From sequence record PX092659.1: 64,000 bases of DNA, one strand, 5' to 3'. The notes under the pieces are model-generated. The model ran no database searches and was not told the origin of the DNA. It saw only the letters and a program-made list of their open reading frames with translations. The stretch is from a phage. A program made the translations under genes and the position numbers. Positions 1,489-61,224 of the stretch are shown one piece after another. How positions within the stretch are numbered: position 1 is the stretch's first letter; each line of letters opens with the position of its first letter.

Positions 1489-2163
1489 ATGGGTCGACAA
1501 AAGCTAACAATAAAAGATATAAATATTAGATTAGCTGATCGTGGAATCCAAATTGTCGGTGAATATGTAAACCAACGTACAAAAACAGTATTTAAATGCC
1601 AGAGAGCACACGTTTGGGAAGCAACACCACATTCTATACTCCATATGAGGAGAGGTTGTCCACACTGCTCCAATAATACAATATCGTTAGATGAAGTTAG
1701 TAATAGAATATCTAATATAGGGTATACTCTGTTAAGCAGCTATACTAATGCTAAAACAAAACTACATCTACGCTGCAATAATGGGCATGACTGTTTCATT
1801 ACCTTAGATGGATTGACTCAAGGTAAGAGATGTCCTTATTGTTCTCTTAAATGGGAGAATGGCGGATTCCTCTATATCATGTCCTCCTCTAGTGGTACTA
1901 AAGTAGGCATAAGCTTATACCCTGAGAAACGGCTGAATGAAGTTAAAAGAGAATCTGGATTTTCTGACCTATACTTGTTCACCGTGTATCATCTGCCAGA
2001 TAGAGAGACTGCTTTAGATTTAGAAAAGGAAGTTCACAGAGAATATTATAATAAAAACTGTGGGTTTTCTAATTTTACAGGAAGCACGGAATTTTTTAAT
2101 GTTGCTCCTGAGGATATAGTAATCTTTCTAAGTAGCTTTGGATTGGAGGATTATGGCCACTAA
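1489..2163 (+). CDS. zinc-ribbon plus T5orf172/GIY-YIG-like putative homing endonuclease
   Basis: 224 aa; two N-terminal repeats each ending in CPxC (CPHCS, CPYCS); C-terminal LYIMSSSSGTKVGIS...RL...GSTEFF resembles the T5orf172 (GIY-YIG superfamily) domain; SD TAGGAGA 7 nt upstream of ATG; paralogous to 42986..43651 and 54845..55708. Confidence 0.6.
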   Translation: MGRQKLTIKDINIRLADRGIQIVGEYVNQRTKTVFKCQRAHVWEATPHSILHMRRGCPHCSNNTISLDEVSNRISNIGYTLLSSYTNAKTKLHLRCNNGHDCFITLDGLTQGKRCPYCSLKWENGGFLYIMSSSSGTKVGISLYPEKRLNEVKRESGFSDLYLFTVYHLPDRETALDLEKEVHREYYNKNCGFSNFTGSTEFFNVAPEDIVIFLSSFGLEDYGH

Positions 2164-2590
2164 TACTAAGTACAAACGTGATGCCATTTCCATAATGAGA
2201 GATGGTATAAAATCTAGGTATAGTAAGGATGGTTGCTGTGCTATATGTGGTAGTAGTGAAGACCTAGAACTTCATCACTATCATACTATATCTCAGCTAA
2301 TAAAAAAATTTGCTAAAGAACTCCAGCTGGATTTCACTGATGAGAATATCGTCCTTTCAAATAGGGAAGCATTCTACAAGAAATATGAGCATGAGTTAGT
2401 TAGGGACGTGGTAACATTGTGCCAGCACCATCACCAATTATTACATAAGGTTTACACGAAAGAACCTCCTTTATTTTCTGCTAATAAACAGAAAACATGG
2501 GTTCAAAAGCAGAAAGACAAATTACAGAATCCTCAAGAAAAGACACAAGTCAAGACTGAAATAAAATCAGGATTCGCAAGGTTCTTATAA
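2153..2590 (+). CDS. HNH endonuclease (terminase-associated type)
   Basis: CAICGS...ELHHYH...CQHHHQLLH pattern (Cys pair plus His-rich HNH core); likely start is ATG 2153 with SD GGAGGA, track ORF extends to TTG 2138; stop overlaps portal start (TAATG). Confidence 0.72.
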   Translation: MATNTKYKRDAISIMRDGIKSRYSKDGCCAICGSSEDLELHHYHTISQLIKKFAKELQLDFTDENIVLSNREAFYKKYEHELVRDVVTLCQHHHQLLHKVYTKEPPLFSANKQKTWVQKQKDKLQNPQEKTQVKTEIKSGFARFL

Positions 2591-29200: not shown

Positions 29201-30158
29201 ATTTTGCAGCTCTAGCTAAGATTCTATCAATATCGCCTTGAGATAGCTTCTCGACTTCACGGAAGTAAAGTTCAAGTTCACCTAACATATCAAGATCAAC
29301 AAGATTTAACTTAGCGTCTTTAGTGACTCGATGATTAATCTTCTTATCTAATAAATCAGAGTCTTTGATAGACTTTAATTGAACAACGTCACCAGTAACT
29401 TCATAGACTACACGATCATAATCACTAGGTTCCATCTCTTCACCAGCTCCGATTGTTTTACGAATCAGTTGTGGTAAATCACCGAGTTCAATCCATTCTA
29501 CTTTTAATGTGTCGGTATCAACGATAAAACAACCATTTGTACCTTTTGTGCGTTCTCTATGGAACGATGTAGTTAATGGAGATCCTGGGTAGAGAAGTCT
29601 AGTAGATCCGATAGTCTGGCTATTAGTATAAGAATGTAAATCGCCAGCAATTACAGTATCATAACAGTTGTACTTAGTTAGATCAATTTCTGGTTTTACA
29701 TGTGGAGGGATTTCACCACGAACATGTGTGAAACATAGTTTTGATTCAGATGGTTTCCATTTGGATTTATGGATCTCATCATATGGAACAATATCAAATT
29801 CAGGGGAACGATATGGTTTGGTAATTACTTCCCACTTACCACTCGTTACTTTATTAATAACCCCCGCATAATGATATAGACATGAAATGGTTTTAGTTAA
29901 CATTTCATGATTTCCAGTAAAGATTTTGCCTGGATGGTCAAGTCTTGACATGAACTGTTCAAGCAGTTCTATTTCTTCTGACGACGGGTCGGCAACATCA
30001 AGTATATCACCACCAGCAATATGAAGATCACAGTTATGATTATGGAATATATCATTTAACCGTTCTCCTAGCATCAGGAAGCGACGCTTCTGCCATTCTT
30101 TAGGTATCTTATCTTGGCCCAACTTAATATGATGATCAGCACTAAATAGTATTTTCAC
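29181..30158 (-). CDS. sbcD: SbcD/Mre11-like nuclease (D12-like)
   Basis: 325 aa; calcineurin-like phosphoesterase motifs (FSADHHI, GDILD, GNHE); GTG start; overlaps sbcC-like start. Confidence 0.8.
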   Translation of the reverse strand: MKILFSADHHIKLGQDKIPKEWQKRRFLMLGERLNDIFHNHNCDLHIAGGDILDVADPSSEEIELLEQFMSRLDHPGKIFTGNHEMLTKTISCLYHYAGVINKVTSGKWEVITKPYRSPEFDIVPYDEIHKSKWKPSESKLCFTHVRGEIPPHVKPEIDLTKYNCYDTVIAGDLHSYTNSQTIGSTRLLYPGSPLTTSFHRERTKGTNGCFIVDTDTLKVEWIELGDLPQLIRKTIGAGEEMEPSDYDRVVYEVTGDVVQLKSIKDSDLLDKKINHRVTKDAKLNLVDLDMLGELELYFREVEKLSQGDIDRILARAAKYVKDYN

Positions 30159-30618
30159 TTAATAGACTATCATATACTGCATTTGCTACAGTCTCTGCTT
30201 CATATATGGAATCTGTGTATCCATAATGCTTACCTTTAATTTGAACAAAATATCTACCAGTTGAATGTTTTAAGAAAACACCTTTTGGTAATTCTTTATT
30301 ACTGTTTTTGTTTCTATTCAACTGATTGCGTGACTTAGAAGAGTCTAGTAAATTATCTATGGCATTATTTAATGGATTCCTATCCTTATGGTCAATTTCT
30401 TCTGGAATGTACCCATACACGTATAAGAAAGCTAGCTGATGTGCTTTGTACCTTTTACCGTCAATTCGGATTTCCAATCTGATATAGTTATCAGATACCC
30501 ATACTTCCGTCCCTGCTATGGAGCCTTTTGATACTCTTCCTCTGGAGACTTTCCATCTAAATATACCAGTTAGATGGTCATAGTCCAATAACTCTTTAAG
30601 TCTATCTTGTGTAATCAT
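30142..30618 (-). CDS. HNH homing endonuclease with AP2-like DNA-binding domain
   Basis: 158 aa; N-terminal MITQDRLKELLDY...AHQLAFLYVYGYIPEEIDHKDRNPLNN HNH core plus C-terminal AP2-like module; no SD; sits between D11-like and sbcD-like genes. Confidence 0.8.
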   Translation of the reverse strand: MITQDRLKELLDYDHLTGIFRWKVSRGRVSKGSIAGTEVWVSDNYIRLEIRIDGKRYKAHQLAFLYVYGYIPEEIDHKDRNPLNNAIDNLLDSSKSRNQLNRNKNSNKELPKGVFLKHSTGRYFVQIKGKHYGYTDSIYEAETVANAVYDSLLSENTI

Positions 30619-30620
30619 AA

Positions 30621-30648
30621 AGATATAAGAAAAGGGGCCGAAGCCCCG
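30621..30648 (-). terminator. intrinsic terminator after D11-like gene
   Basis: minus-strand GGGGC-UUCG-GCCCC hairpin followed by UUUUCUUAU. Confidence 0.7.
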
Positions 30649-30655
30649 CTATTTA

Positions 30656-31706: not shown

Positions 31707-31813
31707 TCTTTTGAATAGCTTAATAATTAAGTCGGAATTTCCTCTAGCTAGTAAGTATAGCTTTTCATAATCGAAGAATTTAATTTTTGTTTTCTCCTCG
31801 AATTTATGTATAT

Positions 31814-36424: not shown

Positions 36425-37286
36425 CTAAAATTTCAATACGTTTTGCTAACATATCAATTTCATCTTTGTTTAAATCACCTGGGTCTTTACCTTCAGGCAG
36501 AAGAAAGTTAGCCACTACAGGCGTTAAACGCGTTTTTGTACGAATTAGCTTGGCCAACGCTTGTGCAGCTTTATTACCAGAAGCATCATTATCTAGTAAG
36601 ATAACAACAACTTTTACACCAGCAATAATATAAGGACTGAACTTATCTGCAATGTTATCCGAGGTAAACTGATGTGTACCAAAGCAGCAAGAAGCATAGT
36701 CTATACCATTATCCTCTAGGTTCAGCATATCAAAGATACCTTCAACTAGAATAAGAACTGGAGTATTATATCGTACAGGGAAAATCGGTGGTGAAACTTG
36801 TTTTGGTTTTACTAAGTATTTAGGAGGGGCAGAACTGTTTATAGAACGACCCAAAAATAGGATATTGCGTCCAACAGCATCTGTGATTGGGAATACAATT
36901 CTGCCTTCCCAATTTTCTTGGTGTTGGAAAGCAAAATATTTCTTCAAGGTCTTAGAACTTATACCTCGGAAATCACCTTCGAAAAGAAAGGCAGATTCTG
37001 GGATTGCAAGATTCGTAGATCCATTTCTAATTTCAGAAATTTTTTTACGTACTTGGGATAGTCTTGGAGATTGTCTATATTGAGTTTCATTAAAATAATG
37101 ATAAATACTAGGTATACCTTTGCCAAAACCGCAACTCAAACAGTGCATAATCCCGGTTTCAGGATCAATACGCAAACTTGGGTGTTTATCGTCATGATCT
37201 GGATTCAGGCAGCATATAAGAATATCTCCTCCAGTATCTTTATACTCAATTCCTTTCAGATCAAGTAGTTCTGTTATTCTACTCAT
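36396..37286 (-). CDS. DNA primase (zinc-finger CHC2 plus TOPRIM)
   Basis: 296 aa; zinc finger CCLNPDHDDKHPSLRIDPETGIMHCLSCG; TOPRIM motifs LVEGIFDMLNLEDNG and LLDNDASGNKAA. Confidence 0.82.
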   Translation of the reverse strand: MSRITELLDLKGIEYKDTGGDILICCLNPDHDDKHPSLRIDPETGIMHCLSCGFGKGIPSIYHYFNETQYRQSPRLSQVRKKISEIRNGSTNLAIPESAFLFEGDFRGISSKTLKKYFAFQHQENWEGRIVFPITDAVGRNILFLGRSINSSAPPKYLVKPKQVSPPIFPVRYNTPVLILVEGIFDMLNLEDNGIDYASCCFGTHQFTSDNIADKFSPYIIAGVKVVVILLDNDASGNKAAQALAKLIRTKTRLTPVVANFLLPEGKDPGDLNKDEIDMLAKRIEILVAESLKDLV

Positions 37287-37816
37287 GCGTTTAGCTCCTC
37301 TAATGCAGGATAATTAGACGGGTCGAATATTTCTTGAATAGCGTTTTCCCCATGGAACTGTAGTCGTAGCTTATTAATCTTATCTATTGCTGATTCTAAA
37401 TTCTGGTACTCAAAATATCCACCGAATACTTTCTTTTTATTGGTATCTCTTAGTTGAACTTGCCATTTTTGCCTTTGTTTATTCCAACTAACTCCTATAT
37501 ACCCTGATTTACTTTTAGCTGCTTTATTCCTACTATTCTCTTGGTGAGAAGAATCTTTAAGATTAACCCAACGATTATCACTTCGTATACGGTTTATATG
37601 GTCTACCTCTTCAGGTAAATAACCTTCCATATAGAGAAAAGCTAGTTGATGAGCATAGTAAGGCTTTCCATCTACCCATATACATATATAATCATCTTTT
37701 CTTAAAGAACCAGCTATACTACCAGCTCTTTGATTGCCTCTAGATACTTTTCTAGTAAACTCCCCAGTTCCTGGGGAGTAATCAAATAACTCTTTTAGCC
37801 TTTCCTGTGTTATCAT
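37283..37816 (-). CDS. HNH homing endonuclease with AP2-like domain
   Basis: 177 aa; HNH core AHQLAFLYMEGYLPEEVDHINRIRSDN; YIGVSWNKQRQKWQVQ AP2-like; ATGA overlaps with both flanking genes (helicase stop and primase start). Confidence 0.8.
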   Translation of the reverse strand: MITQERLKELFDYSPGTGEFTRKVSRGNQRAGSIAGSLRKDDYICIWVDGKPYYAHQLAFLYMEGYLPEEVDHINRIRSDNRWVNLKDSSHQENSRNKAAKSKSGYIGVSWNKQRQKWQVQLRDTNKKKVFGGYFEYQNLESAIDKINKLRLQFHGENAIQEIFDPSNYPALEELNA

Positions 37817-39279
37817 ATATCGCTGGCCTGTTCACCTGTTGAATTTTCAGCTTTGTCTTTCTTAGCACGTTTAGGTTGAGCCGGCTTATCCTTCTCAATA
37901 GGGATAACGAACTCAGCTTCCATTTGAGATATATCTTCCATTGCTAGGTTGGTAGTGTTATCCATTCGCAGAGTTTCCCAGTTCATTTTAGGCATAAACT
38001 TCACGCTATCAGAAGAACGAGTCTTAACGAAGTCAAACATAATAGCACCTTGACCATTATCAGCTTTTGCAGCATTAAGATTAGCAGCCATGTCTGCGGA
38101 ATCAAGAATCCCCTTTGACATACGTGTTCTACCATCCTGATCGATCTGGTAAGGAGCTACACCAGCCACGTTATGTTTCTGGCAGATAGATTTGAAAGAC
38201 GAGCTAACAACCATCTGTTCTTTCCAGTCATACATATCAATGGTTTTAGAATCTGGAAGTCGGGTTTGGTTAATATAGTCCAGTAAAGCTACTGTAACTT
38301 TATCACCATATCTAGCAACTAATTTATTTAACTCTACATCAACTGTTGTAATGGACAGTTCAGGGTCATAAACGATAATCATAGGAGTATGTAGTTCATA
38401 CCCCTCTATTAGTTTACTCTCCATATCGTAGAAATCACTCATCTTAGCCATTGTGTACTGTTTAACAAAGTTATCGAAAAGCTCTTCACCACCATTAAAC
38501 ATTCTAGCTCTAGTTCTGGCTAATCTCAACAGAGCTGCACCTTCTAGAGTATTATTACGCATTGCTAGTGCTGATACACCAGCTAACATGGCTAGATTAC
38601 GTCTAAATACTTCATGTTCTTTCATCTCAATTGAGAAGTATGGAGCAATATCTCCATTCAAATATTGCTGAACCTGTATGTTTGAACAGATAATGGATTT
38701 ACCAGTACCACGCCAACCACCAAGCAGTAACGTTTCTGTGCGAGCTAAACCAATTTGAGCGTCGAACTCATTACAAATACCAAGAGCGATTAAGTTCAGT
38801 TTGGTATCTTCTTCTCTCTGGAAAATACGCATGTTATCTGCGTTGAATACTTTTCCAGTATTCGTTACTTTCTCTTCTAATTTTAAGTGAAGGGAGGCAA
38901 CTCGGTTGAGAATTTCTCCCTGATCCAGCATTGTTAAATCTTGAAGCACGTCTGTTTCTAGAAGCTTCAGGAATAAATCCTGTGTATATTCGGCCTCTAG
39001 GACTTCAAGTGCCTGTTCCATGCTCACTTCTGGAATTTGAGTGTTAGCTAAGACGACTAGAGCTTGAGAAAGGCGGGCGTTCCTATTAGCTTCAAGCATA
39101 AGTGCGTCAATGGACGGCATTGTGTTATATTTTTTATAATAATTCTGGACGGCTTGGTAAATTGAGGAGAAAGCGTCATTAAAATGATCTTTATGCAGTT
39201 TTGAGAATGTTTCCAATGCTATTTGCTTCTGTTCGGAAGCTAGAAGCATCTTCAACACTACAGCTTGCACGTTAAACAT
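37813..39279 (-). CDS. replicative DNA helicase, DnaB-like RecA-fold ATPase
   Basis: 488 aa; Walker A LLLGGWRGTGKS, Walker B-like IIVYDPELS; N-terminal helical domain; adjacent to primase. Confidence 0.65.
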   Translation of the reverse strand: MFNVQAVVLKMLLASEQKQIALETFSKLHKDHFNDAFSSIYQAVQNYYKKYNTMPSIDALMLEANRNARLSQALVVLANTQIPEVSMEQALEVLEAEYTQDLFLKLLETDVLQDLTMLDQGEILNRVASLHLKLEEKVTNTGKVFNADNMRIFQREEDTKLNLIALGICNEFDAQIGLARTETLLLGGWRGTGKSIICSNIQVQQYLNGDIAPYFSIEMKEHEVFRRNLAMLAGVSALAMRNNTLEGAALLRLARTRARMFNGGEELFDNFVKQYTMAKMSDFYDMESKLIEGYELHTPMIIVYDPELSITTVDVELNKLVARYGDKVTVALLDYINQTRLPDSKTIDMYDWKEQMVVSSSFKSICQKHNVAGVAPYQIDQDGRTRMSKGILDSADMAANLNAAKADNGQGAIMFDFVKTRSSDSVKFMPKMNWETLRMDNTTNLAMEDISQMEAEFVIPIEKDKPAQPKRAKKDKAENSTGEQASDI

Positions 39280-39853
39280 TATCTAGCAGCTCCTCTGTAA
39301 AGTTATCCGCTATATTCTGCGGTTTAACCCTCTCTATATCTAGAGCATCTAGAGCTGCGAAATCTCCATACAGGGCTAAAAGCAGCTTATCTCTATACCA
39401 CAGAGCTTCTCCTAGAGTTTTTAGGGTTTTTCTAAATACTTTGGAGTTTTTAGATATGGTTACTTTAAATGTGTTATTTTTTGTTACTTCTATATTACGA
39501 ATGCCTAGCTTGTTACCTATAAAGCTATTAGCGGAATTTTGAGAGGAAGTAACTTCACGTAAGTTATTCCAAGTATTATCAGTTTTAATTCTATTTTTAT
39601 GATCTACCTTGTCAGGAATTTCTCCTTCCATGTATAGAAAGGCCCACCTATGCGCTCCCATAGATTTTTGTATACCTGACTCTAAGGTTATCTTTATATA
39701 AATGTAGCCCGATGAATGCATATAGCCTGCAGGTTTGTTAGCGTGCTTAGCATTGAACGCAGGATTATTTTCTCTAGGTAGCCAGTAAAAATTTCCAGTA
39801 TCAGGCTCATATCTTAATAATGTTTTAAGATACTGCTGGGTAATCTCCCCCAT
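39272..39853 (-). CDS. HNH homing endonuclease with AP2-like domain
   Basis: 193 aa; HNH core AHRWAFLYMEGEIPDKVDHKNRIKTDN; C-terminal AP2-like segment. Confidence 0.75.
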   Translation of the reverse strand: MGEITQQYLKTLLRYEPDTGNFYWLPRENNPAFNAKHANKPAGYMHSSGYIYIKITLESGIQKSMGAHRWAFLYMEGEIPDKVDHKNRIKTDNTWNNLREVTSSQNSANSFIGNKLGIRNIEVTKNNTFKVTISKNSKVFRKTLKTLGEALWYRDKLLLALYGDFAALDALDIERVKPQNIADNFTEELLDNV

Positions 39854-42692: not shown

Positions 42693-43004
42693 TTATTCTT
42701 TTTCCGCCAGGCGTTTAGCTTCTTTTTCTACTTCTAATAAAACCTCACTATTAGATAATATTTTAGTAAATGCCTTAAATAAATGAGATGTTGTTTCTAG
42801 AGTGTATGGCATACTGAATCCACTTTTTGTTGGAAACCATTCACCTTCTATATCTTGGAGCCAGTACCTAATTCCTAAGTATAGATTCCCCCTAAACTCA
42901 GATACAGTTAGCCTAACCTGTTGGCCATCTTCTCTTTCCCAGATAACTATGGACTGATCATCTACATGTCCAACATAATCCTGATTTACATTATCTCCCG
43001 ACAT
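42693..43004 (-). CDS. putative PC4-like ssDNA-binding protein
   Basis: 103 aa; RLTVSEFRGNLYLGIRYW...WFPTKSGFS pattern resembles PC4/YdbC-like fold; assignment by motif only. Confidence 0.4.
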   Translation of the reverse strand: MSGDNVNQDYVGHVDDQSIVIWEREDGQQVRLTVSEFRGNLYLGIRYWLQDIEGEWFPTKSGFSMPYTLETTSHLFKAFTKILSNSEVLLEVEKEAKRLAEKE

Positions 43005-43651
43005 TTTATTGCTCCCTGACTTAGGAGATATTCCTCTGCCTCCTCTGGTTGAATATTAAAAAACTCAGTAGAACCATCAAATATTGATTCTGTAAATATC
43101 TGTGTAGTACTAAAAAATCTATGAGCTTTATTTTCTAGATTATACGCTGACTCATCATAAGAGTATACTCCATATATACTCAAGTCCTCCAGATTAGAAT
43201 CTTTTTTGATCTCTAAAAGTCTTCTATCTGGACTTTTAGATGTTCCTATTTTTGTGCCTAGTTGTGGGCTATAAAATACGTATAAATAGCTAGTAGATTT
43301 ACACATAGGGCATGATCTACCAGCATTTTTAACTTTATCTACACTACTAGTCCACGTGTGTCCGTGGGTGCACTCAAATATTGCCGGACTTTGGGAATTT
43401 ATATAGGAGGATATAAGTTTTATACCTTTAGTACTTAACTGTTGATTTATGACCTCTACAGTTAGTTTAGCTTTGCCACTACAATAAGGGCAGCCACTAC
43501 CTTTCCGTATATTACTTAAATATCCCTTCCATTGATGACCTTTTGAACACTCAAATATAGCGGGTGTTCTTATATTAGCCCATTCACTCACTATATGAAA
43601 ACCTAGTGGCTCTAACTCTTTATTTATTTGCTCTTCTGTTAATTTTTTCAC
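42986..43651 (-). CDS. zinc-ribbon plus T5orf172/GIY-YIG-like putative homing endonuclease
   Basis: 221 aa; two repeats ending in CPYC/CPMC; C-terminal YLYVFYSPQLGTKIGTSKSPDRRL...GSTEFF; GTG start; paralog of 1489..2163 and 54845..55708. Confidence 0.6.
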   Translation of the reverse strand: MKKLTEEQINKELEPLGFHIVSEWANIRTPAIFECSKGHQWKGYLSNIRKGSGCPYCSGKAKLTVEVINQQLSTKGIKLISSYINSQSPAIFECTHGHTWTSSVDKVKNAGRSCPMCKSTSYLYVFYSPQLGTKIGTSKSPDRRLLEIKKDSNLEDLSIYGVYSYDESAYNLENKAHRFFSTTQIFTESIFDGSTEFFNIQPEEAEEYLLSQGAIKCREIM

Positions 43652-45535: not shown

Positions 45536-45769
45536 TTACGATTCCTTGAGTAAAGAAGAAAGTTCAGCATATACTTTATCTAACTCAAACCCTATGCGAA
45601 GAGATACGTTAGTCCTCCGTTGTTTAAGTAACCACTCGGATATGTTAGGGATACCAGCTAATCTATGTGGTACCACCCTACATAGCTTTTCCGAAGTGTC
45701 ATAAACAGGAACTTTACGTTCTTTTACTGGGAACTTCCTTGTTTCCCATTTCTTATTCTTCACTGTCAT
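45536..45769 (-). CDS. hypothetical small protein (questionable)
   Basis: Track ORF 45536..45877 overlaps HNH gene by 125 nt; internal ATG at 45769 gives 77-aa product MTVKNKKWETRK... Confidence 0.25.
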   Translation of the reverse strand: MTVKNKKWETRKFPVKERKVPVYDTSEKLCRVVPHRLAGIPNISEWLLKQRRTNVSLRIGFELDKVYAELSSLLKES

Positions 45770-46283
45770 ATCTCTCCGAGGGATTAAATTCACCAAACAG
45801 CTCTTTAACTCCCCTAAGGTATAGCTGATGGGCTTCTTCCGGGGTATCTCGTCTACCAAAAATATGTTGCTTTCCATCGCAGTAAGCGTAGGCCATATAC
45901 CTATTACCTCGTTTTACAACTCCAGTGAATCCGGTAGAATTAGTAGAACACTTCTTATTCTTCCCATTTTCGGAATAGGTAGCCTTACGTAAATTATCCC
46001 ACAAGTTGTTTAAACTATCGCCGTCTTTATGGTCAATAGTTTTACCCCCAGGATCTTCACCTGTCTTTATAAACCAGATTATTCTATGGGCTAAGTAAGC
46101 TGTCCGCTCCCCATTTATCGTAAACTCTAGCTGTCTCCCAGTTTTCATTTTGGAGCCCGCTACCTTTCCCTTCCTTGGGCCAGATAACCAAATTAAGTCC
46201 CCAGTACTTTCGTCATACCTAAGCTTTTCTAGGATAAATGCCATAGGAGGCATTGGTTTATGCATTTTCATTAGTTGCTCCAA
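45753..46283 (-). CDS. HNH homing endonuclease with AP2-like domain
   Basis: HNH core AHRIIWFIKTGEDPGGKTIDHKDGDSLNN; AP2-like FTGVVKRGNRYMAYAYCDGKQHIFGRRDTPEEAHQLYLRGVKELFGEF; start overlaps 3' end of origin-binding gene. Confidence 0.75.
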   Translation of the reverse strand: MEQLMKMHKPMPPMAFILEKLRYDESTGDLIWLSGPRKGKVAGSKMKTGRQLEFTINGERTAYLAHRIIWFIKTGEDPGGKTIDHKDGDSLNNLWDNLRKATYSENGKNKKCSTNSTGFTGVVKRGNRYMAYAYCDGKQHIFGRRDTPEEAHQLYLRGVKELFGEFNPSERYDSEE

Positions 46284-49044
46284 GTTCGGACAGTACTTCT
46301 TCTGCCATAGCCTTCTCTTCCTCTGTCATGAATTTGAAAGGAATTGGCATACACTCGATTTTACAATAGGTTCTGTACCAGTCTACGATATTCTCCGTGT
46401 TCATATCTTTACCAATACCCATCATACCAAGATACATTCTAGCATATTTTGGGTTAGCACTCTGACCTGTTTTAAGGAAGAAGTCCTTCTTCTTACCTTT
46501 CAGAGCCTCTATGAATGGTTTAATGGTCACATTTGAACACTTCTTAATATCTTCCCAGAACATCTCGTGCATCTTATGGAAGAATGCAGCTCGATCATTC
46601 GGTTTATCTTTGATATATTGTTCAACATGCTCAACTGTTACATCTTTAATAGACTCGAGATGATAATAGCGAACAAGAAGTAGCTTAGCTTCATATGCAT
46701 CCGCATGGCGCGGAGCACAATAATCAGGAGTTGAGTGCAGAATAGCTTTGATTCGCTCCTCTGTGTACTCTTTACCAGCACCTTCAATAGTTCCCCAGCT
46801 TTCACTGAAAATATCAATAGTTGCACCCTGATCAAGCAAGTAATAACGTAAAGTACTAGTATAGTTCCTAGATTCTAATTCCCTGCGACGTGCGTATAAT
46901 TGCTGTGCTAACTCCAGCCAACCTTCATCAATATTATATTGTTCAGAACCTGCGGAGAATCCACTCGTAGATTTATCAATAAAATAATAGATATTTTGAG
47001 CACCACGGTCGCGCCTGATTGCTTGGAAACGCATGTTTGGCGCTTGATTACTAGTTCTAGTAATAACGAATACGTTATCAAAATAGTTGAAGTCAACACC
47101 ACTCGTTACGGATGGACTACATAATAAGCAATCAATTTGTTGATCAATTAGCTCATTAGTTGTGTAATCCAGAATACGTCTAATATCTACATCAGACGTA
47201 GAGTTTGAGTGGATTTCCTTAACTAACGCACCCGTATTACGACGCAACGCCATGCCCTTCTCATTCAGTTCATCTGGCCCACAGTCAGATACTAGGATAG
47301 ATTTCTCACCCATCTCCAGGGAAGTCTGAAGTGCAACCCAAATACTAGACTCATCAGGGAACTCATAAGCATGAGCTTTTGATAGCATTTTACGGTGGTG
47401 ATTGTAAAATGCAACCGGTTTATCAAACTCAATCAAAGAACCATATGCTTCAATTGTTTCTGCACTAATATCCCCATCAGATAATATAATGATTTTTGCA
47501 GTTGCAAGAATATCCCGAAGAACCTGAATACATTCACGACGTTGTTTAACAACCGGGGCGAATAATAGGTCATTCATTACAGCGTCACATTCATCGATAA
47601 AGATTGCATCGATTTGACCAATAAAACTCTTGAACTTATGTAAAGAGTGAATAGTTGTGGACATACGGTCAATAGCGCCACGCTTAAAATTAAGCATATC
47701 TACAGACTTATCATATTGTCCTGCACTAAATTTCTTAGCATTTGAAGATACCAGTGCTCGAGTATTGGTAATTGCTAAGAAATTACCTTTAATAACTCCT
47801 GAATCTAACCAACGAACAACAGCCGTTGTTTTACCCGTGCCTAGGCTTGCTTTTACAAAAGTCATATAGCCTTCTGGTGGTACAGTATTTAATTTCAAGA
47901 AGTTGTCGGTCTCTAGTGAGTTAGTCTCTAGTTTTTTAAGTGGAATACCTTTTAAAACATCAGGTATATCACGTTTAGAATTATTCACAAAGGCTTTTAA
48001 CGCCTGCTTACGACCGTTATTAAAGTAATCTTGAATATTACGACTATTATCTTTAGTTGCAATATACTCAGATAAAGCTGGGCGGATCTCCTTCTCTAGC
48101 CAGCCAAAATCTACACCATCCTCTAGTGCTCGGTGATAGAGTTTAGGAATAATACGTAGATATACACCATCCTCAGCTTCTTCTAACTCGCTGATGGTTT
48201 CTTCTACTTTATCAGAGGCAGCTTTTTTACCCTTAATTTGGTCTAGTAAAGAGTAGAACTCTTCCTTAAACTCACCTCTAGTTGTTTCATAGTCAACTAG
48301 ATTATTAGGTAAATTTACTTTTGAGCCTTTAACAAATACCAGACGTGAAGCACCCTCCGCTTTAAACGGATCTACTATACCATCAGTGAATAAAGGATCT
48401 GCAAAGTAATGGAGCTGTACGGAAGAGTAATAAGCTAAGTCGGCAATATCAAAGCCATACTTTTGTCTACTACTTTCGTTGATAGATGTAAATAAGAATT
48501 TGATTTGACCCTGAGTTACTTTAACATTAGATTCTAGTATTAAGTGCATTCGGATACCTGGTTTTAGCCCAGCCGAAGACGATGCATGAGCGATAAACCC
48601 TGCATCAAGAGGAAACATATCCTCACTAATACTATTTAACATTCTAATAATATGTCGAGCCATGCCAACAAGATCAAACTTGTTACAACCACCTGTATCT
48701 ACAATACCATCCACGTCCATTGCAATTATATGACTTGGGTTAGATACATTAAAGTTGCCCTTCTTACGTCGCACATTATTTTTAGGTGCAAGACATCGAC
48801 CTCGTACCGCAACGATATGAGGGTCAGACGTTAAACGTCTCATAAGAGGAAGCATTTCTACTAGGGTTTGAGGATCAACTTCATCAATTACATCAAACTT
48901 GAAGGGCATTGAAGCTGGTTTACCTTCAGGATGCTTTGAGGAAAATCTTTTAGCAAAAAGATAGTCTTCTGCTTTAACTTCTCGCCAATTGCCTGTGGCT
49001 AAATCGCGATGAAATCCTGCATGACCTTGTAGGATTGAAAACAC
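46258..49044 (-). CDS. putative replication origin-binding protein / DNA helicase-like ATPase
   Basis: Walker A SLGTGKTTAVV and Walker B IFIDECDAV in central region; track ORF extends to TTG 49122 but GTG 49044 has SD AGGAG 7 nt upstream. Confidence 0.6.
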   Translation of the reverse strand: MFSILQGHAGFHRDLATGNWREVKAEDYLFAKRFSSKHPEGKPASMPFKFDVIDEVDPQTLVEMLPLMRRLTSDPHIVAVRGRCLAPKNNVRRKKGNFNVSNPSHIIAMDVDGIVDTGGCNKFDLVGMARHIIRMLNSISEDMFPLDAGFIAHASSSAGLKPGIRMHLILESNVKVTQGQIKFLFTSINESSRQKYGFDIADLAYYSSVQLHYFADPLFTDGIVDPFKAEGASRLVFVKGSKVNLPNNLVDYETTRGEFKEEFYSLLDQIKGKKAASDKVEETISELEEAEDGVYLRIIPKLYHRALEDGVDFGWLEKEIRPALSEYIATKDNSRNIQDYFNNGRKQALKAFVNNSKRDIPDVLKGIPLKKLETNSLETDNFLKLNTVPPEGYMTFVKASLGTGKTTAVVRWLDSGVIKGNFLAITNTRALVSSNAKKFSAGQYDKSVDMLNFKRGAIDRMSTTIHSLHKFKSFIGQIDAIFIDECDAVMNDLLFAPVVKQRRECIQVLRDILATAKIIILSDGDISAETIEAYGSLIEFDKPVAFYNHHRKMLSKAHAYEFPDESSIWVALQTSLEMGEKSILVSDCGPDELNEKGMALRRNTGALVKEIHSNSTSDVDIRRILDYTTNELIDQQIDCLLCSPSVTSGVDFNYFDNVFVITRTSNQAPNMRFQAIRRDRGAQNIYYFIDKSTSGFSAGSEQYNIDEGWLELAQQLYARRRELESRNYTSTLRYYLLDQGATIDIFSESWGTIEGAGKEYTEERIKAILHSTPDYCAPRHADAYEAKLLLVRYYHLESIKDVTVEHVEQYIKDKPNDRAAFFHKMHEMFWEDIKKCSNVTIKPFIEALKGKKKDFFLKTGQSANPKYARMYLGMMGIGKDMNTENIVDWYRTYCKIECMPIPFKFMTEEEKAMAEEVLSELGATNENA

Positions 49045-53031: not shown

Positions 53032-54858
53032 TTACTTAAGATTTAAGTGTTTTACTCTACCAAGAACTTCTTTTTGTTTCCCAGAATTGAAAGGCCTACT
53101 GCCAGGAGATCCCAGGTACCCGCAAACCCTACGTGTAACCTCTATTTCTTCAGACCCACAACTCGGACATACAAACCCACGTTCAGAGGCAACAGATTCA
53201 CCCATATACCCACAGTTGAAGCACTCATCAATTGGTATATTAACACCAATATAATGGCTACATTCTAGCCCCTTATCCACCACATACTCAAGAGCTTTGT
53301 GGAACTTTTTCATTTGAGGTAGTTCCACAAATGATATATTACCACCATTAGCTATTTTGGTAAAATGAGCCTCGTACTCAAATTTAGTATCTGGAGCTAC
53401 CTTCTCTCTTACGTCCAAATGGTGACTATTAGTAAGATAGCCTTTGTCTGTTAACCAAGAATACTCTGGGAATCTACGTTCTAGTAATTTATTAAAACGA
53501 TTACATAGAGACTCACTAGGAGTAGCATACAAGCTAAACCCAAGATTAGTCTCATTAGCTTTAACTTCGCAACGATTTTTTAGGTGAGTGAGAACTTCCT
53601 CTGTAAATTCAATACAGTCCCTATGGGTCTGTGGTAAACTAAACATTATTTGGCACATCTCATAGACCCCAATATACCCAAGAGATACAGAGGATCTACC
53701 CTCAAAAATAGGCCATACATATTCTTCCCCTTCTAAACGTGCACCAAACCCACCGTGCATATAAAGAATAGGGGCTTGTTTAGCCTTAACTTTCTTCAGT
53801 CTGTTTAAGAAGAAGTCATGCGCTTCAAAAGCCTCATCCACATATTTGTCTAGAATACCCCAGAAATCTTCAAAAACTCCATCTGCCTCAGCAGCAACCA
53901 TAGGTAGATTGATAGACACAACACCTAAATTATTACGTCCTGCAATTTCTCCAGAGGGGATAGCAGATAAAAAACTACGACAACCCATAGGGGCTTTAAA
54001 ATCACCAGTAACAGCTACAACTCTCTCGTAACTTAAATAGTCTGGATACATACGAGTAGCAGAACACTCAAGTGCTAGCTGTTTTATATCATAGTTAGGA
54101 TCACCTGGGTTTTTATTTAACCCTTCTTTAACTGAGAATACTAGTTTAGGGAAGATAGGGGTTGACTCAGCAGCACCTAAACCTTTAATGCGATTTTGGA
54201 GGATGGCTTTCTGAATCATCCTTTCCTCCCACTCCTGCCCTAATCCAAAGCCAAGCGTAACAAAAGGGGTCTGCCCATTAGAGTTAAATAATGAATTAGT
54301 TTCATACTCTAGAGCTTGGAATGCATCATAACACTCTTTTTCAGTAAGCTCAGTAGCATACACAGCAGCTTTTCTTTCATCCTTGAGCCAACGTAGCCCA
54401 CGACCCAGATGTTTATTGTAAGACTTTCTGACATACGGGGCTAGAACCTCGTCGATACGATCAATAGAGGTGCCACCATACTGAGCACCAGATACTTGGG
54501 CAATAATCTGAGCAGTGATTGCACATGCAGTAGTTATGGATTTAGGAGTTTCAATATTTGCATTACCAATTTTAGTACCATTCTTCAGCATGCCACCAAG
54601 GTCTACTAAGCAACAGTTAGTGTACCCCTGCGCCCTGTAATCCATATCATGAATGTGTATCTTACCTAGATTATGTGCGTCTAATAGATGTTTGGGTAAT
54701 TCCTGCGATACTAAATACTTGTTGATTTCTCCGGCTAATAAGTCTCTTTGAGTATGGAACATCTCACTAGGCTTATTAGCATTATTATGTTGTAAGTCCT
54801 TGTCAGCAGTTAGAGTGAGCAGGCCTTTGCAATTCTCAATTAATTCATTCTCTGTCAT
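53032..54858 (-). CDS. nrdD: anaerobic ribonucleoside-triphosphate reductase
   Basis: 608 aa; C-terminal glycyl-radical motif RVCGYLGSP and zinc site CFNCGY...CPSCGS; catalytic Cys region. Confidence 0.9.
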   Translation of the reverse strand: MTENELIENCKGLLTLTADKDLQHNNANKPSEMFHTQRDLLAGEINKYLVSQELPKHLLDAHNLGKIHIHDMDYRAQGYTNCCLVDLGGMLKNGTKIGNANIETPKSITTACAITAQIIAQVSGAQYGGTSIDRIDEVLAPYVRKSYNKHLGRGLRWLKDERKAAVYATELTEKECYDAFQALEYETNSLFNSNGQTPFVTLGFGLGQEWEERMIQKAILQNRIKGLGAAESTPIFPKLVFSVKEGLNKNPGDPNYDIKQLALECSATRMYPDYLSYERVVAVTGDFKAPMGCRSFLSAIPSGEIAGRNNLGVVSINLPMVAAEADGVFEDFWGILDKYVDEAFEAHDFFLNRLKKVKAKQAPILYMHGGFGARLEGEEYVWPIFEGRSSVSLGYIGVYEMCQIMFSLPQTHRDCIEFTEEVLTHLKNRCEVKANETNLGFSLYATPSESLCNRFNKLLERRFPEYSWLTDKGYLTNSHHLDVREKVAPDTKFEYEAHFTKIANGGNISFVELPQMKKFHKALEYVVDKGLECSHYIGVNIPIDECFNCGYMGESVASERGFVCPSCGSEEIEVTRRVCGYLGSPGSRPFNSGKQKEVLGRVKHLNLK

Positions 54859-55708
54859 TGATTATTTCCTCGATAAACTTTATAGCTACTTTTGGTTCAA
54901 TATTGAAGAATTCCGTAGCGCCATCAAAATCTTTGTAATGGCAATTCTGTTCTTTAAAGTAGTTATGAGCTAATTTTTCGATTCGAACTGCACTACTATA
55001 TTCGCCAATTTCAAATACTTTAAGTATTTCCAAATCAATAAGGTGGCCACTAGATTTAATATGTAGAAGCCTACGCTCTGGATTGTTAGACCTACCTATT
55101 TTAACTCCATGTGTGGGGCTATGCATAACATATATCTTAGTACTTTCTAAATCTCTATAGCTACAGTAAGGACAACCGTTCCCTCTTAATACAGATCCTG
55201 GAGTAGCTCCCCACCTATGCCCTGCGCCACAGAGAAAGGTAGTCTTAGTATTCGCATTAACATATTCACCTACTATTCTGATATTTCTGGCAGTAAGACG
55301 ATCATTTATAACACTAATACTAAGTTTCTGCTTATTAATAGCACAAGACGGACAGCCACTCCCCCTATTAATTATGCTATTAAGCGTAGTAGTCCACTCA
55401 TGACCACAAATACACCTAAATTTAGTGTTTATATCAACACTATTTTTATATCCCCCCAACAATGTAATACCTCTGTCCTGTAATACAGAACTAATTTTAT
55501 CAATATCTAGTTTACGGCTATTAGTAGAGCAAGTAGGACAATTGGTCTTTCCATTCCTAATAGCGTCAAATTTAGCTGTCCATTGATGGCCATATTCACA
55601 CTGATACGTATGCCTATACCTAGAATTTTGATACGGCTTATCCACCATAGTAAAACCACGCTCGGCTAGGCATTTATCTACTTCTTCTTGGGTTAATTTT
55701 TTCGGCAT
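54845..55708 (-). CDS. zinc-ribbon plus T5orf172/GIY-YIG-like putative homing endonuclease
   Basis: approx 288 aa from ATG 55708 (track extends to TTG 55765); four repeats ending CPTC/CPSC/CPYC; C-terminal IYVMHSPTHGVKIGRSNNPERRL...GATEFF; consensus promoter upstream. Confidence 0.6.
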   Translation of the reverse strand: MPKKLTQEEVDKCLAERGFTMVDKPYQNSRYRHTYQCEYGHQWTAKFDAIRNGKTNCPTCSTNSRKLDIDKISSVLQDRGITLLGGYKNSVDINTKFRCICGHEWTTTLNSIINRGSGCPSCAINKQKLSISVINDRLTARNIRIVGEYVNANTKTTFLCGAGHRWGATPGSVLRGNGCPYCSYRDLESTKIYVMHSPTHGVKIGRSNNPERRLLHIKSSGHLIDLEILKVFEIGEYSSAVRIEKLAHNYFKEQNCHYKDFDGATEFFNIEPKVAIKFIEEIINDRE

Positions 55709-55736
55709 TACTCTTCTCCATAGAATTTTTACATTT

Positions 55737-55765
55737 ATTATACTAAACATTATCCACCATGTCAA
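55737..55765 (-). promoter_or_regulatory. consensus sigma70 promoter
   Basis: minus strand TTGACA(55765-55760)-17 bp-TATAAT(55742-55737), then SD GGAGAAGAG and ATG 55708. Confidence 0.7.
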
Positions 55766-59554: not shown

Positions 59555-60070
59555 TTGATAACACAAGATGAATTAAAAAGGATTCTGGAGTATAATCCAG
59601 ATGAAGGAACATTTACTTGGTTAAATAACCAAGAAGTACACAATAAAGTAAGAGGATTACCTGCTGGCTGTTTAAAACCACACTCAGTAGACCCTAACCG
59701 AAAAGACTTAGTGATACAAATCAAGGGCAAGAAGTACCCTGCACAAAATATTGCCTTCCTGTACATGACAGGAAACTTACCTAAAGTTATGGTTGACCAT
59801 ATAGATGGAGATTCACTAAACTATAAGTGGACTAATCTAAGAGAAGCAGACTGGCAATTAAATAGTCAAAATAGAAAAACCAGTAAAAACAATATATTGG
59901 GTACTAAGAATATTCGGAAGAAAGGGTCTGGATTTCAAGTTAGAAAATCCATTAACGGAAAAGAATATGTGAAAACTCTTCCAACTCTAGAAGAGGCAAT
60001 AGAGTATCGAGATTCTTTAATCCTCTCTATAACCAAAGATCCAACACTACTTAGAAACACAGATAAATAG
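59555..60070 (+). CDS. HNH homing endonuclease with AP2-like domain, between nrdA and nrdB
   Basis: 171 aa; TTG start with SD TAAGGAG; HNH core AQNIAFLYMTGNLPKVMVDHIDGDSLNYKWTN; paralog of 30142..30618 (both begin MITQD.LK). Confidence 0.8.
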   Translation: MITQDELKRILEYNPDEGTFTWLNNQEVHNKVRGLPAGCLKPHSVDPNRKDLVIQIKGKKYPAQNIAFLYMTGNLPKVMVDHIDGDSLNYKWTNLREADWQLNSQNRKTSKNNILGTKNIRKKGSGFQVRKSINGKEYVKTLPTLEEAIEYRDSLILSITKDPTLLRNTDK

Positions 60071-60078: not shown

Positions 60079-61224
60079 ATGACAACTTTACTTAACTTAA
60101 ACTGGGATCATACCAATAAAGATCTATTTCTCGGTGATTCTCTTGGTATTGCAGATTATGTACGAGTAGCCCATCCAGAGCTGGAAAGGCTGGCGTTATT
60201 AGCTCGCTCTCAATTTTGGACTGAAACTGAAATCAGTCTGGAAGCAGATAAGAAACAATGGCCTAATCTCCCACGAGAAATTCAGGAAATTACACTCCTG
60301 AACTTAGCATGGCAGACTCAAACTGATTCCTTTATCAGTCGTGCCCCTGAAGCAGCTATTATGCCACTTGTAAGTCGTCCAGAATTGGAAGGTATGCTCA
60401 AACAGTGGAGCTATTTTGAAGACTTGCATAGTCGTGCTTATAGCAATATTATTCGTAATGTGCTGACTGATCCAGCAGAATTTATTGATTCTGTAACCAA
60501 AAACCAAGAAGCATTCGCGCGCATCGCTGATTCTGTTGAACTATTCGATGAACTGTACCAGTTAGGTCAGTATTTCATCGCAGTACGCGATCATCGTGGC
60601 GACAATACATACCCAGAAACGGAGTTTCCTGAAGTTAAACGTGAAACTCAGGCTAAACTATTAGATGCTTACTTTGCTATCTATGGTCTGGAAGCAATGC
60701 AGTTTTACGCATCCTTTGCATGTACCTTTGCATTAGCAGAGAACGATATTCTGCAAGGTATTGCTAAAAATCTGCAATTAATCGCTAAAGATGAAGCTCT
60801 GCACACTCAGATGTCCAAAGCAATCATCCAGATTATGTTCCAGCAGTTTGACAAAGACCTAGTAGATGAAGCAGTGGCTAAAGCACCAGCACAGCTCCTG
60901 AAAACCCTGAAAACTGAAATTGAATGGGGTCATTTCATTTTCAAAGGTCGTAGTCTGATTGGCTTGAATGCAGAACTTCTAGAAGAATATCTGTACTTTG
61001 TGGGGCGTAATGCATTTATGCACATCGGTGTAGAATGGCCTAGTCATTTACCAGTAATCACCAAAAACCCTATTCCGTGGATTATGAACTGGTTGGATAC
61101 TACTTCTCTACAGCCTGCTCCACAAGAAATTCAGATTGGTGCAGCCTACCGTGTAGGTCAGGTAACTGAGACCTCTACTGATACTCTGAAAGATCTGGGT
61201 AATGAATTTGGAGATTTCTTATGA
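60079..61224 (+). CDS. nrdB: ribonucleoside-diphosphate reductase small subunit
   Basis: 381 aa; di-iron ligand motifs (FEDLHSRAY, EALHTQ) and ferritin-like fold signature. Confidence 0.9.
   Translation: MTTLLNLNWDHTNKDLFLGDSLGIADYVRVAHPELERLALLARSQFWTETEISLEADKKQWPNLPREIQEITLLNLAWQTQTDSFISRAPEAAIMPLVSRPELEGMLKQWSYFEDLHSRAYSNIIRNVLTDPAEFIDSVTKNQEAFARIADSVELFDELYQLGQYFIAVRDHRGDNTYPETEFPEVKRETQAKLLDAYFAIYGLEAMQFYASFACTFALAENDILQGIAKNLQLIAKDEALHTQMSKAIIQIMFQQFDKDLVDEAVAKAPAQLLKTLKTEIEWGHFIFKGRSLIGLNAELLEEYLYFVGRNAFMHIGVEWPSHLPVITKNPIPWIMNWLDTTSLQPAPQEIQIGAAYRVGQVTETSTDTLKDLGNEFGDFL

Follow-up and report, generated by a model that had tools for sequence, protein, structure and literature searches.

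Five small HNH nuclease genes lie wedged between the core replication genes of a phage, and the question they raise is whether they are mobile homing genes and whether their density makes the region a hotspot of mosaicism. The window (64,000 nucleotides of DNA) comes from a T5-like phage (Tequintavirus). Homing endonuclease genes are the chief difference among T5-like genomes (PMC10644984). They cluster beside essential genes, and the combination of HNH and AP2 domains is a known family (PMC10448857); the nrdA/nrdB junction is a recognised homing-gene site in T5-like and T-even phages (PMC3326045). That T5-like genomes differ by such genes is thus already known, and one more genome confirms it. 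A sequence-only reading of the window had listed five AP2-type HNH genes, and all five are present at the coordinates it gave, apart from a revised start for the fourth:

30142..30618, minus strand: h1 (HNH_3 E 3.3e-13), between the terminator of D11 (ssDNA-binding protein) and D12 (SbcD-like)
37283..37816, minus strand: h2, HNH-AP2 gene between the DnaB-like helicase (D6) and primase
39272..39853, minus strand: h3 (HNH_3 E 5.5e-14), occupying the whole D5-helicase intergenic region
45753..46271, minus strand: h4 (HNH_3 E 1.9e-13), in the last obp codons, upstream of a T5.110-like ORF
59555..60070, plus strand: h5 (HNH_3 E 1.3e-7), between the nrdB promoter and nrdB (nrdA/nrdB junction)

With a probability of roughly 0.85, these are paralogous freestanding homing endonuclease genes of the replication and nucleotide-metabolism module, and putatively active ones.

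Every one of the five ORFs is matched by the Pfam family HNH_3 (PF13392) with 31.5-52 bits (gathering score 24.8 bits; E 1.3e-7 to 5.5e-14) and by PHROG 99 'HNH endonuclease' (E 1e-45 to 2.5e-65). They are paralogs, with pairwise amino acid identities of 27-54%. An HMM built from the five genes recovered exactly those five copies from the six-frame translation of the window, and a sixth paralog sought in this way was not found. All five aligned proteins have the residues D72, H73, N85, N94 and N97 in common, and all of these except D72 are also invariant across 47 homologs. A profile match to the structure of I-HmuI (1U3E) has an E value of 2.4e-6. In h5, Gln replaces the His of the 'AH' motif, a residue kept in more than 90% of the family; the same Gln occurs in T5 hegH.

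AP2 domains are the DNA-binding modules of transcription factors. None of the five proteins reaches the Pfam AP2 (PF00847) cut-off of 33.3 bits; h2 comes closest with 18.3 bits, and h1, h3, h4 and h5 show no match to this profile at E<=0.01. The profile is matched by 32 of 47 family members, and the C-terminal regions of h1, h3, h4 and h5 align with that of h2. A confident structural model predicts h2 to be an I-HmuI-like HNH core with an AP2-fold C-terminal domain. The modelled core has the beta-beta-alpha-metal fold and resembles a solved HNH homing enzyme, while the C-terminus forms a three-stranded sheet packed on a helix that can be superposed on solved AP2 domains. In NCBIfam, no family was found for h2, h5 or the terminase-side nickase. 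Each of the five proteins probably combines an I-HmuI-like catalytic core of the HNH (His-Me finger) type with an AP2-type domain for DNA binding at its C-terminus.

Three of the five sites are filled in T5 itself (NC_005859 / AY543070), where hegH, hegI and hegJ occupy the nrdA/nrdB, obp/T5.110 and helicase/primase junctions as in the window. The h5 protein is 100% identical to T5 hegH (putative H-N-H endonuclease P-TflVIII), and h4 is 98.9% identical at the amino acid level to hegI at the same site. In contrast, h2 is only about 64% identical to hegJ and represents a different allele or lineage at a shared site. Both hegH and hegJ carry the prefix 'P-' (putative) in the T5 record. Unlike the window, T5 has empty sites at D11/D12 (h1) and D5/helicase (h3). 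The experimentally characterised precedent in T5 (2004; cited in PMC3326045, PMC2330249 and PMC10644984) is the set of HNH-type freestanding endonucleases of the tRNA cluster, whose genes, unlike the five described here, lie outside the window.

Outside the T5-like phages, several known systems share some of these features. I-HmuI of the Bacillus phage SPO1 is encoded in a group I intron of the DNA polymerase gene, whereas the five genes here are freestanding; its DNA-binding modules also differ and include no AP2. Homing by I-HmuI proceeds via a nick (PMC3017599). MobE of T4 and Aeh1 is a freestanding HNH gene at nrdA/nrdB, like h5 but in a different phage family, and the parallel was drawn earlier for the T5-like phage AKFV33 (PMC3326045). 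Genes of the Mob class combine HNH-3 with a zinc-finger domain, not with AP2 (PMC10448857). Similar in organization is the HNH-AP2 family that includes ICP1 'IPA-HNH', with an N-terminal HNH and a C-terminal AP2 domain, freestanding and beside replisome or ribonucleotide reductase genes, as here (PMC10448857). The domains of IPA-HNH are too divergent for the Pfam HNH_3 profile (PMC10448857), which the five genes of the window match directly.

The genes had been described as wedged between their neighbours without an intron, and the junctions bear this out. All five lie outside any intron or intein, are inserted at gene boundaries, and leave the neighbouring reading frames preserved through overlaps or donated codons. 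At the first site, the last codons of h1 overlap the start of D12, which begins ATGAGAATATTA in empty sites and GTGAAAATACTA, within the h1 3' end, in the window. The copy of h1 in JLBYU40 has a 1-bp indel (frameshift) and is split into two pieces. In NR01 the D11/D12 junction holds an unrelated HNH gene with 32% amino acid identity to h1. A promoter/terminator scan of 29.9-46.6 kb placed a terminator at 30634-30647; this and the terminator at 39878-39899 were the sole useful output of the scan, which gave 58 promoter-like matches against 51 +/- 7.6 in shuffled sequences, no excess.

The second gene, h2, splits the DnaB-like helicase (D6) and primase genes precisely at their ATGA stop/start overlap. 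The ATGA overlaps of 37283..37816 with both neighbours, noted before, are seen in the sequence, and the empty site is the bare ATGA overlap. This is the site of T5 hegJ (P-TflX), of which h2 is a divergent allele; an allele of 62-69% amino acid identity is found there in T5, ESCO30, EH7 and APCEc03. At the third site, h3 replaces the D5-helicase intergenic region and brings along another terminator upstream (39878-39899); the helicase here begins MFNV, from a start codon that the 3' end of h3 provides within the HNH stop region. The empty version of the site has a different terminator with an AAGGAG Shine-Dalgarno sequence and a helicase that starts MTLFNV. The copy in EH7 is 99.3% identical to h3 in nucleotides, and the 4 differences between them are all synonymous.

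The ORF at 45753-46283 starts with TTG. An ATG at 46271 would give a gene of 519 bp, the annotated length of T5 hegI, and is the likelier start of h4. The gene obp ends ...ELGATNENA* in the window and ...ELGARNDSEE* in empty genomes; the HNH ORF ends ...RYDSEE* like the obp of empty genomes, and h4 therefore inherits the old obp tail. The fifth gene starts with TTG at 59555, has its own AAGGAG upstream, and lies downstream of a conserved promoter (TTGCTA-17-TATAAT). Different HNH genes occupy this nrdA/nrdB junction in phiLLS, Spc35, oselot, Eps7 and EH7.

The presence or absence of each gene was surveyed in about 440 T5-like records (438-463 per site). The same gene fills the site in 9/440 records for h1, 72/439 for h2, 12/438 for h3, 24/463 for h4 and 75/439 for h5. 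Occupancy per site is 2-17%, and the same gene is missing in 83-98% of records. In most of the remaining records both flanks match and the span equals the query minus the HNH gene, a clean empty site; some have a different HNH gene at the junction instead. Examples of such alternative occupants are NR01 at site 1 and EH7 at site 5, and database records with other HNH genes at these junctions include phiLLS, Spc35, oselot, Eps7 and SuperGirl. The empty state is in the majority at all five junctions, which supports the proposed mobility. Filled sites occur in both Tequintavirus and Epseptimavirus, and the occupancy pattern varies from site to site among eight relatives that were aligned. No record carries all four HNH genes of 29000-47500, because none covers more than 93% of that stretch; the combination of all five filled junctions in one phage is absent from every record of the collection.

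The five ORFs are under strong purifying selection, with dN/dS values of 0-0.10 (0.04-0.10 for h4 and 0-0.06 for h5). The sequence-only reading had named as evidence against mobility that all five genes be conserved at the same sites, under purifying selection and with no empty sites. The purifying selection is found; conservation without empty sites is not.

If these genes home, the sequences beside them might carry traces of it. Flanks were aligned in detail for the eight relatives only, and the following stretches, in which genomes with a homing endonuclease gene (HEG-plus) and without it (HEG-minus) can be compared, are relevant:

60079..60204, plus strand: HEG-linked tract beside h5, nrdB codons 1-42
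46258..46350, minus strand: HEG-linked tract beside h4, last ~30 obp codons
36990..37286, minus strand: divergent primase 5' allele beside h2, first ~100 codons
30099..30158, minus strand: first 20 codons of D12 beside h1, showing the change pattern of h1-less genomes

A HEG-linked tract is clear at sites 5 and 4, partial at sites 1 and 2, and not found at site 3 among the eight genomes. Over nrdB codons 1-42, comparison of the window with HEG-minus genomes gives 17-24 synonymous and 1-2 nonsynonymous codon differences; over codons 43-60 the synonymous ones fall to 0-3, an abrupt end to the tract. HEG-plus genomes have 0-4 synonymous codon differences over the 60 codons compared. This distribution makes nrdB codons 1-42 a candidate for both the target/immunity region and the co-conversion tract of h5. 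In obp, all four HEG-minus genomes (4/4) have 13 nonsynonymous codon differences, which fall almost entirely within the last ~30 codons, a stretch dense in synonymous differences as well; the four HEG-plus genomes have 1-3 nonsynonymous differences. Over the first 50 bp on the obp side, identity is 66-68% in HEG-minus versus 96-100% in HEG-plus genomes. The primase 5' region has 19 synonymous codon differences from the window in NR01 and 34-41 in the other seven genomes; beyond a breakpoint near codon 28, the window allele recurs only in NR01, the genome that also has the h2 allele of the window. In D12 the h1-less genomes have the pattern NN.s......ssss..sNss, slightly different in NR01 and SelmaRatti, which have in common a third allele extending to about codon 88. 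JLBYU40, which carries h1, has 3 synonymous changes only in these 20 codons.

These tracts are consistent with co-conversion. They fall short of proof because physical linkage predicts an association between a gene and its adjacent sequence under any recombination regime. A crude permutation test, in which random junctions of the same genomes served for comparison, rated flank divergence as only marginally unusual at two sites, 4 and 5 (fraction 0.03-0.20); at sites 1 and 2 it was unremarkable, and site 3 showed none. The description of the region as a likely hotspot of mosaicism holds for the qualitative pattern only; with two marginal sites, the crude test falls short of establishing it statistically.

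Other histories could leave genes scattered in this way. The HNH genes might be passive cargo that no longer mobilises itself, with the patchiness due to ordinary homologous recombination and occasional deletion. The region is indeed mosaic throughout, with many sharp shifts in identity away from the HNH genes, and flank divergence at the HEG junctions is not clearly above that at random junctions. Exchange of large blocks would also fit h3, which lies within a block (34.2-42.4 kb) that is 97-100% identical to EH7, a value that excludes h2 itself and its primase-side flank, where the EH7 allele differs; identity to EH7 is mostly 80-94% in the adjoining D11-D10 region (30.6-34.2 kb). However, proteins with such low dN/dS and intact catalytic motifs are being kept functional, which is hard to reconcile with inert cargo. 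The HEG-linked tracts directly adjoin the gene, are very short, at about 40 codons, and stop abruptly. Site-specific invasion is further suggested by the repeated presence of different HNH lineages at one and the same junction. Passive carriage is accordingly improbable. Differential loss from a T5-like ancestor that had the genes, in most of its lineages, has a negligible probability, even though T5 shares three of the filled sites and both Tequintavirus and Epseptimavirus have them. It is rejected because the empty sites, as seen at sites 2, 3 and 4, are intact, mutually conserved alternative junctions with no deletion scars. The dense synonymous divergence of the flank tracts, in backgrounds that are 95-99% identical, indicates import from a diverged donor, and the occupancy pattern changes from site to site among the eight genomes.

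It is also conceivable, at a very low probability, that the HNH-AP2 genes are domesticated and kept for a benefit to the phage (exclusion of competing T5-like phages by cleaving their genomes, or AP2-type regulation of the adjacent replication genes), with their spread being secondary. The purifying selection would agree with this, as would the presence of a module typical of transcription factors. The genes are tightly coupled in translation to essential neighbours (the ATGA overlap, the donated start, the swapped obp tail), and their loss could therefore be costly. Nonetheless, since 83-98% of records are without the same gene at a given site, most of them with clean empty sites, none of the five is required, and JLBYU40 tolerates a frameshifted copy of h1. 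Cutting rival genomes is, moreover, mechanistically the same event as homing, so that the two views differ more in emphasis than in mechanism. The status of the five ORFs as mobile homing genes is supported by sporadic sites, precise junctions, alternative occupants, a decayed copy and the flank haplotypes. That homing is ongoing, as had been proposed, we infer from these population patterns.

Homing of the five genes would require that one cell be co-infected by a carrier phage and a relative without the given HNH gene. The enzyme would nick or cut the rival genome at a specific sequence within the adjacent conserved gene, and recombinational repair of that genome would use the carrier as template, so that the empty site would acquire the nuclease gene together with a short piece of flanking sequence. 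In the carrier itself the target differs, mostly at synonymous positions, and would be spared. Neighbouring genes would stay expressed owing to the way each insert is packed: with ATGA overlaps, with a start codon donated to the neighbour, with an exchanged C-terminal tail, or between a promoter and its gene. This scheme presumes that the enzymes are active nucleases with specific target sequences, that they act by a nick or by a double-strand cut, and that inheritance is biased when infections are mixed.

The terminase-side region holds a nuclease gene that had been counted with the homing genes, and the window contains three further genes of another type:

2153..2590, plus strand: T5 nicking endonuclease (T5.153 ortholog), a core gene outside the homing set
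1489..2163, plus strand: T5orf172 gene (T5.154 ortholog) between the terminase large subunit and nickase genes, with CapR/treble-clef zinc fingers
42986..43651, minus strand: T5orf172 gene between ligA (DNA ligase) and D3, where the genomes vary
54845..55765, minus strand: T5orf172 gene directly downstream of nrdD

The gene at 2153..2590 is the conserved T5 nicking endonuclease, for which a structure has been solved, and its assignment as a homing HNH gene is rejected. Its product has no Pfam match and is about 97% identical over residues 1-145 (full length) to the 'Nicking endonuclease' of PDB 9QGV/9QGX (phmmer E 3.7e-94), with 98% amino acid identity to T5.153. The gene is found in essentially all T5-like records, including those without the adjacent T5orf172 gene, and several records annotate its counterpart as 'nicking site-specific endonuclease'. 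A search for a paper on the T5 nickase returned nothing relevant in the literature collection used.

The earlier count of nuclease genes was correct for the five HNH genes and missed the three sporadic T5orf172 (GIY-YIG-like) genes. These match Pfam PF10544 with 26.9-40.8 bits (cut-off 20 bits), score above the respective cut-offs for CapR and DUF4379, and carry an N-terminal zinc-finger/CapR DNA-binding region. The first (T5orf172 E 1e-8, with MUG113, CapR and DUF4379) is 98% identical in amino acids to T5.154; in 74/444 records 80% or more of the query around it is matched, and most are without about 720 bp. It represents a second class of putative freestanding homing gene. The second (T5orf172 E 7.3e-6, MUG113 6.2e-10, DUF4379, CapR) also matches PHROG 681 'endonuclease'; it is missing in T5, JLBYU40, EH7 and APCEc03, and in 13/270 matching records the match extends over 80% or more of the query. 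The third (DUF4379 1e-14, MUG113, CapR, T5orf172 3.3e-10) aligns over its full length in ESCO30 and SelmaRatti among the eight relatives, is annotated as 'putative homing endonuclease' in SelmaRatti, and is covered to at least 80% in 27/441 records.

For the most part these results have little import beyond annotation, where the nickase, the five HNH ORFs and the three T5orf172 genes each need a correct and separate label. Comparative and taxonomic measures of identity in Tequintavirus should allow for presence/absence cassettes and for the short diverged tracts that adjoin them. Cheap, concrete substrates for testing the putative T5 enzymes P-TflVIII (hegH) and hegI are at hand in nrdB codons 1-42 and in the obp tail. 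A more speculative view, which we consider rather doubtful, is that in this phage, with its five filled HNH-AP2 junctions and three T5orf172 genes besides, these nucleases act jointly as inter-phage weapons that nick essential genes of co-infecting T5-like rivals (nrdB, obp, primase, D12 and helicase), with nrdB codons 1-42 then being the target/immunity site of P-TflVIII. If this were true, the nucleases would set the boundaries of genetic exchange in Tequintavirus.

In a megablast search of 50,697 phage records with window 29000-47500 as query, about 440 T5-like genomes were matched. The closest was Escherichia phage ESCO30 (93% coverage, 95% identity), with T5 itself at 87% coverage and 95% identity; these matches mark the window as a Tequintavirus-type genome. 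Coverage of this query exceeds 93% in no record of the collection, so the combination of HNH genes h1 to h4 is complete in none of them. One window protein has an identical copy on a 109,264-bp Logan contig (run ERR14047523). The gene order is that of T5.

Gene blocks of the window, in T5-like order.
First block, plus strand: terminase, nickase, portal and structural genes
Second block, minus strand: D13, D12, D11, D10, pol, primase, helicase, D5, ligase, D3, D2, obp
Third block, plus strand: phoH, nrdA, nrdB, frd, thy

Two segments of about 45-55 bp (45480-45532 and 59488-59530), repeated elsewhere at 83-89% identity in every T5-like genome compared, match positions annotated as T5 early promoters (one upstream of D2, the other of hegH/nrdB) and are probably conserved early promoters. 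The 91-residue ORF at 44519-44794 (minus strand) has a weak Pfam match to a Tad2-like (Thoeris anti-defence 2) domain, below threshold at 16.9 bits (cut-off 25; E 0.0095). It sits in a segment whose sequence differs from relative to relative, with 68-81% identity to ESCO30, NR01 and SelmaRatti.

HNH genes h1 to h5, their junctions (sites 1 to 5) and the records with the same gene, from a search of the phage collection with each gene plus 300-bp flanks.
30142-30618, minus strand: h1, site 1, D11/D12; 9 of 440 records
37283-37816, minus strand: h2, site 2, helicase/primase; 72 of 439 records
39272-39853, minus strand: h3, site 3, D5/helicase; 12 of 438 records
45753-46271, minus strand: h4, site 4, obp/T5.110; 24 of 463 records
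59555-60070, plus strand: h5, site 5, nrdA/nrdB; 75 of 439 records

As the sequence-only reading held, all five are HNH genes: they exceed the Pfam HNH_3 gathering score (E 1.3e-7 to 5.5e-14) and match PHROG 99 'HNH endonuclease' (E 1e-45 to 2.5e-65). Aligned with one another, these paralogs (27-54% identity) all keep the catalytic D-H and three Asn residues. An HMM of the five, run against the six-frame translation of the window, returns exactly those five and no sixth paralog. The start of h4 is more plausibly the ATG at 46271 than position 46283 of the sequence-only reading, and gives 519 bp, the annotated size of T5 hegI; h5 starts with TTG just after AAGGAG. At the amino acid level h5 is 100% identical to T5 hegH and h4 98.9% identical to hegI, while h2 shares only about 64% with hegJ.

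The distribution of these genes is sporadic. In most remaining records the two flanks match as separate pieces that together span the query length less the gene, that is, an empty site; this is the outcome of the comparison with T5 and its relatives that had been proposed as a check. A different HNH gene is found at site 1 in 3sent1 and NR01, at site 4 in SuperGirl, and at site 5 in phiLLS, Spc35, oselot, Eps7 and EH7. In T5, hegJ, hegI and hegH fill sites 2, 4 and 5, and sites 1 and 3 are empty. Copies of h1 and h3, 96-99% identical, are already present in GenBank phages.

Alignment of eight relatives with the window showed that neighbouring genes are intact at all five sites. At site 1, h1 follows the D11 terminator and its final codons overlap the D12 start, which reads GTGAAAATACTA in the window versus ATGAGAATATTA in genomes with an empty site. 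At site 2, h2 is placed exactly in the ATGA that joins helicase stop and primase start, and ATGA is regenerated at both ends; the overlaps with both neighbours claimed from sequence are thus real. The N-terminus of h2 (MITQERLKELFD, 37787-37816) resembles that of the adjacent downstream primase (MSRITELLD, 37260-37286) in protein and DNA, a likeness that may be fortuitous or may reflect microhomology exploited during insertion. At site 3 the entire D5-helicase spacer (terminator and Shine-Dalgarno) is swapped for a different terminator plus h3, and the helicase start changes from MTLFNV to MFNV. Within the end of obp, h4 has given that gene a new tail (TNENA*) and its own ORF inherits the old one (RYDSEE* versus RNDSEE* in empty genomes). 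At site 5, h5 separates nrdB from its conserved promoter and has a ribosome-binding site of its own.

With a probability of about 0.85, the five ORFs are freestanding HNH-AP2 homing endonuclease genes, and the main point of the sequence-only reading was correct. The analysis shows the identity of the domains, the distribution, the junctions, the selection and the linked tracts, whereas activity, targets and biased inheritance are inferred. In a co-infecting genome without the nuclease gene, the target would lie in the adjacent conserved gene, where it would be bound by the AP2 domain and nicked or cut by the I-HmuI-like HNH core; recombinational repair templated by the carrier genome would then copy the nuclease gene and a short flank. 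Ancestral presence followed by differential loss is scarcely credible: empty sites hold intact alternative junctions, which contradict it. That the genes have been domesticated for an accessory function is very improbable, and carriage as passive cargo of general recombination is also unlikely. The dN/dS of the HNH genes is 0 to 0.10 where orthologs exist, and the JLBYU40 copy of h1 is split by a 1-bp indel into two ORFs (annotated there as a 306-bp fragment).

Sequence flanking the HNH genes was compared between genomes with and without them. Four genomes that lack h5 show 17-24 synonymous and 1-2 nonsynonymous codon differences from the window over nrdB codons 1-42, a divergence that ends abruptly after codon 42; in three carriers of h5, 0-4 codons of the 60 compared differ synonymously. 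The last ~30 codons of obp show 13 nonsynonymous codon differences in four genomes without h4 versus 1-3 in four with it. Genomes without h1 have a common pattern over the first 20 codons of D12, and the window's allele of the first ~100 primase codons is, from codon ~28 onward, found elsewhere only in NR01, whose h2 is of the same allele as well. Site 3 has no such linked tract among the relatives aligned. These tracts are consistent with co-conversion and target-site immunity, which would produce them, although linkage alone also predicts association. When random junctions of these genomes served as the comparison in a crude permutation test, sites 4 and 5 were only marginal (0.03-0.20) and sites 1 and 2 unremarkable. 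The entire region is mosaic in identity to relatives, and the proposed mosaicism hotspot is supported only in a qualitative sense.

Larger exchanges are also suggested. Salmonella phage EH7, classified as Epseptimavirus, for the most part shares 80-94% identity with the window over D11-D10 (30.6-34.2 kb) and 97-100% over most of an ~8-kb block (34200-42400) with pol, primase, helicase, h3 and D5, staying at 66-89% at h2 and the adjoining primase 5' end (~37.0-37.8 kb). The contrast suggests recombination between genera over a large block. At 29800-30158, NR01, which has another HNH gene at site 1, and SelmaRatti, whose site 1 is empty, have the same third D12 5'-end allele, ~88 codons of which 31 differ from the window synonymously and 16-17 nonsynonymously; in SelmaRatti it may be a co-conversion tract left after HNH gene loss.

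The sequence-only reading had missed three nuclease genes of the T5orf172 (GIY-YIG-like) type that carry CapR and treble-clef zinc fingers. They form a second class of sporadic nuclease genes whose mobility is putative.

T5orf172 genes, with the records in which coverage of a query spanning the gene reaches 80% or more.
1489-2163, plus strand: ortholog of T5.154; 74 of 444 records
42986-43651, minus strand: 13 of 270 records
54845-55765, minus strand: 27 of 441 records

The nrdD region (52200-55800; nrdD 53032-54858) is 60-74% identical to T5, JLBYU40, EH7, APCEc03 and fp01, and 84-100% identical to ESCO30, NR01 and SelmaRatti. Downstream of nrdD the same T5orf172-type gene occurs in ESCO30 and SelmaRatti; the ORF of NR01 at that position is shorter and its type unconfirmed. 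The nrdD allele appears to move as a whole together with this nuclease gene. SelmaRatti has annotated inteins in its DNA polymerase and nrdA genes (20935-22011 and 42481-43503), which are additional mobile-element sites of the same module; pol (855 aa) and nrdA (811 aa) of the window are without them. Relatives carry HNH genes also after thyA, after obp and before D10, which brings the junctions used by the family in this region to at least eight.

The terminase-adjacent ORF that had been counted as a further homing HNH gene was rejected as such.

2153-2590, plus strand: T5 nicking endonuclease, 98% identical to T5.153

This conserved core gene carries HNH-like CxxC and His motifs, has no Pfam match, and matches PDB 9QGV/9QGX 'Nicking endonuclease' end to end at ~97% identity. 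It is kept in T5-like records lacking its neighbour, several of which annotate a 'nicking site-specific endonuclease'. Within the literature searched, no paper describing the T5 nicking endonuclease was found.

Homing genes are well documented in this family. The T5 record annotates hegH, hegI and hegJ at three of the five junctions, and the nrdA/nrdB endonuclease was discussed for AKFV33 and paralleled with T4 mobE (PMC3326045). In the BF23 genome paper, homing endonuclease genes are the largest contributor to differences among T5-like genomes (PMC10644984). Barth et al. describe HNH plus AP2 as a known family, T5-like phages as rich in T5orf172 genes, and homing endonuclease genes as clustered near replisome, ribonucleotide reductase and terminase genes (PMC10448857). 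The finding is real but ordinary, an already known feature of these phages.
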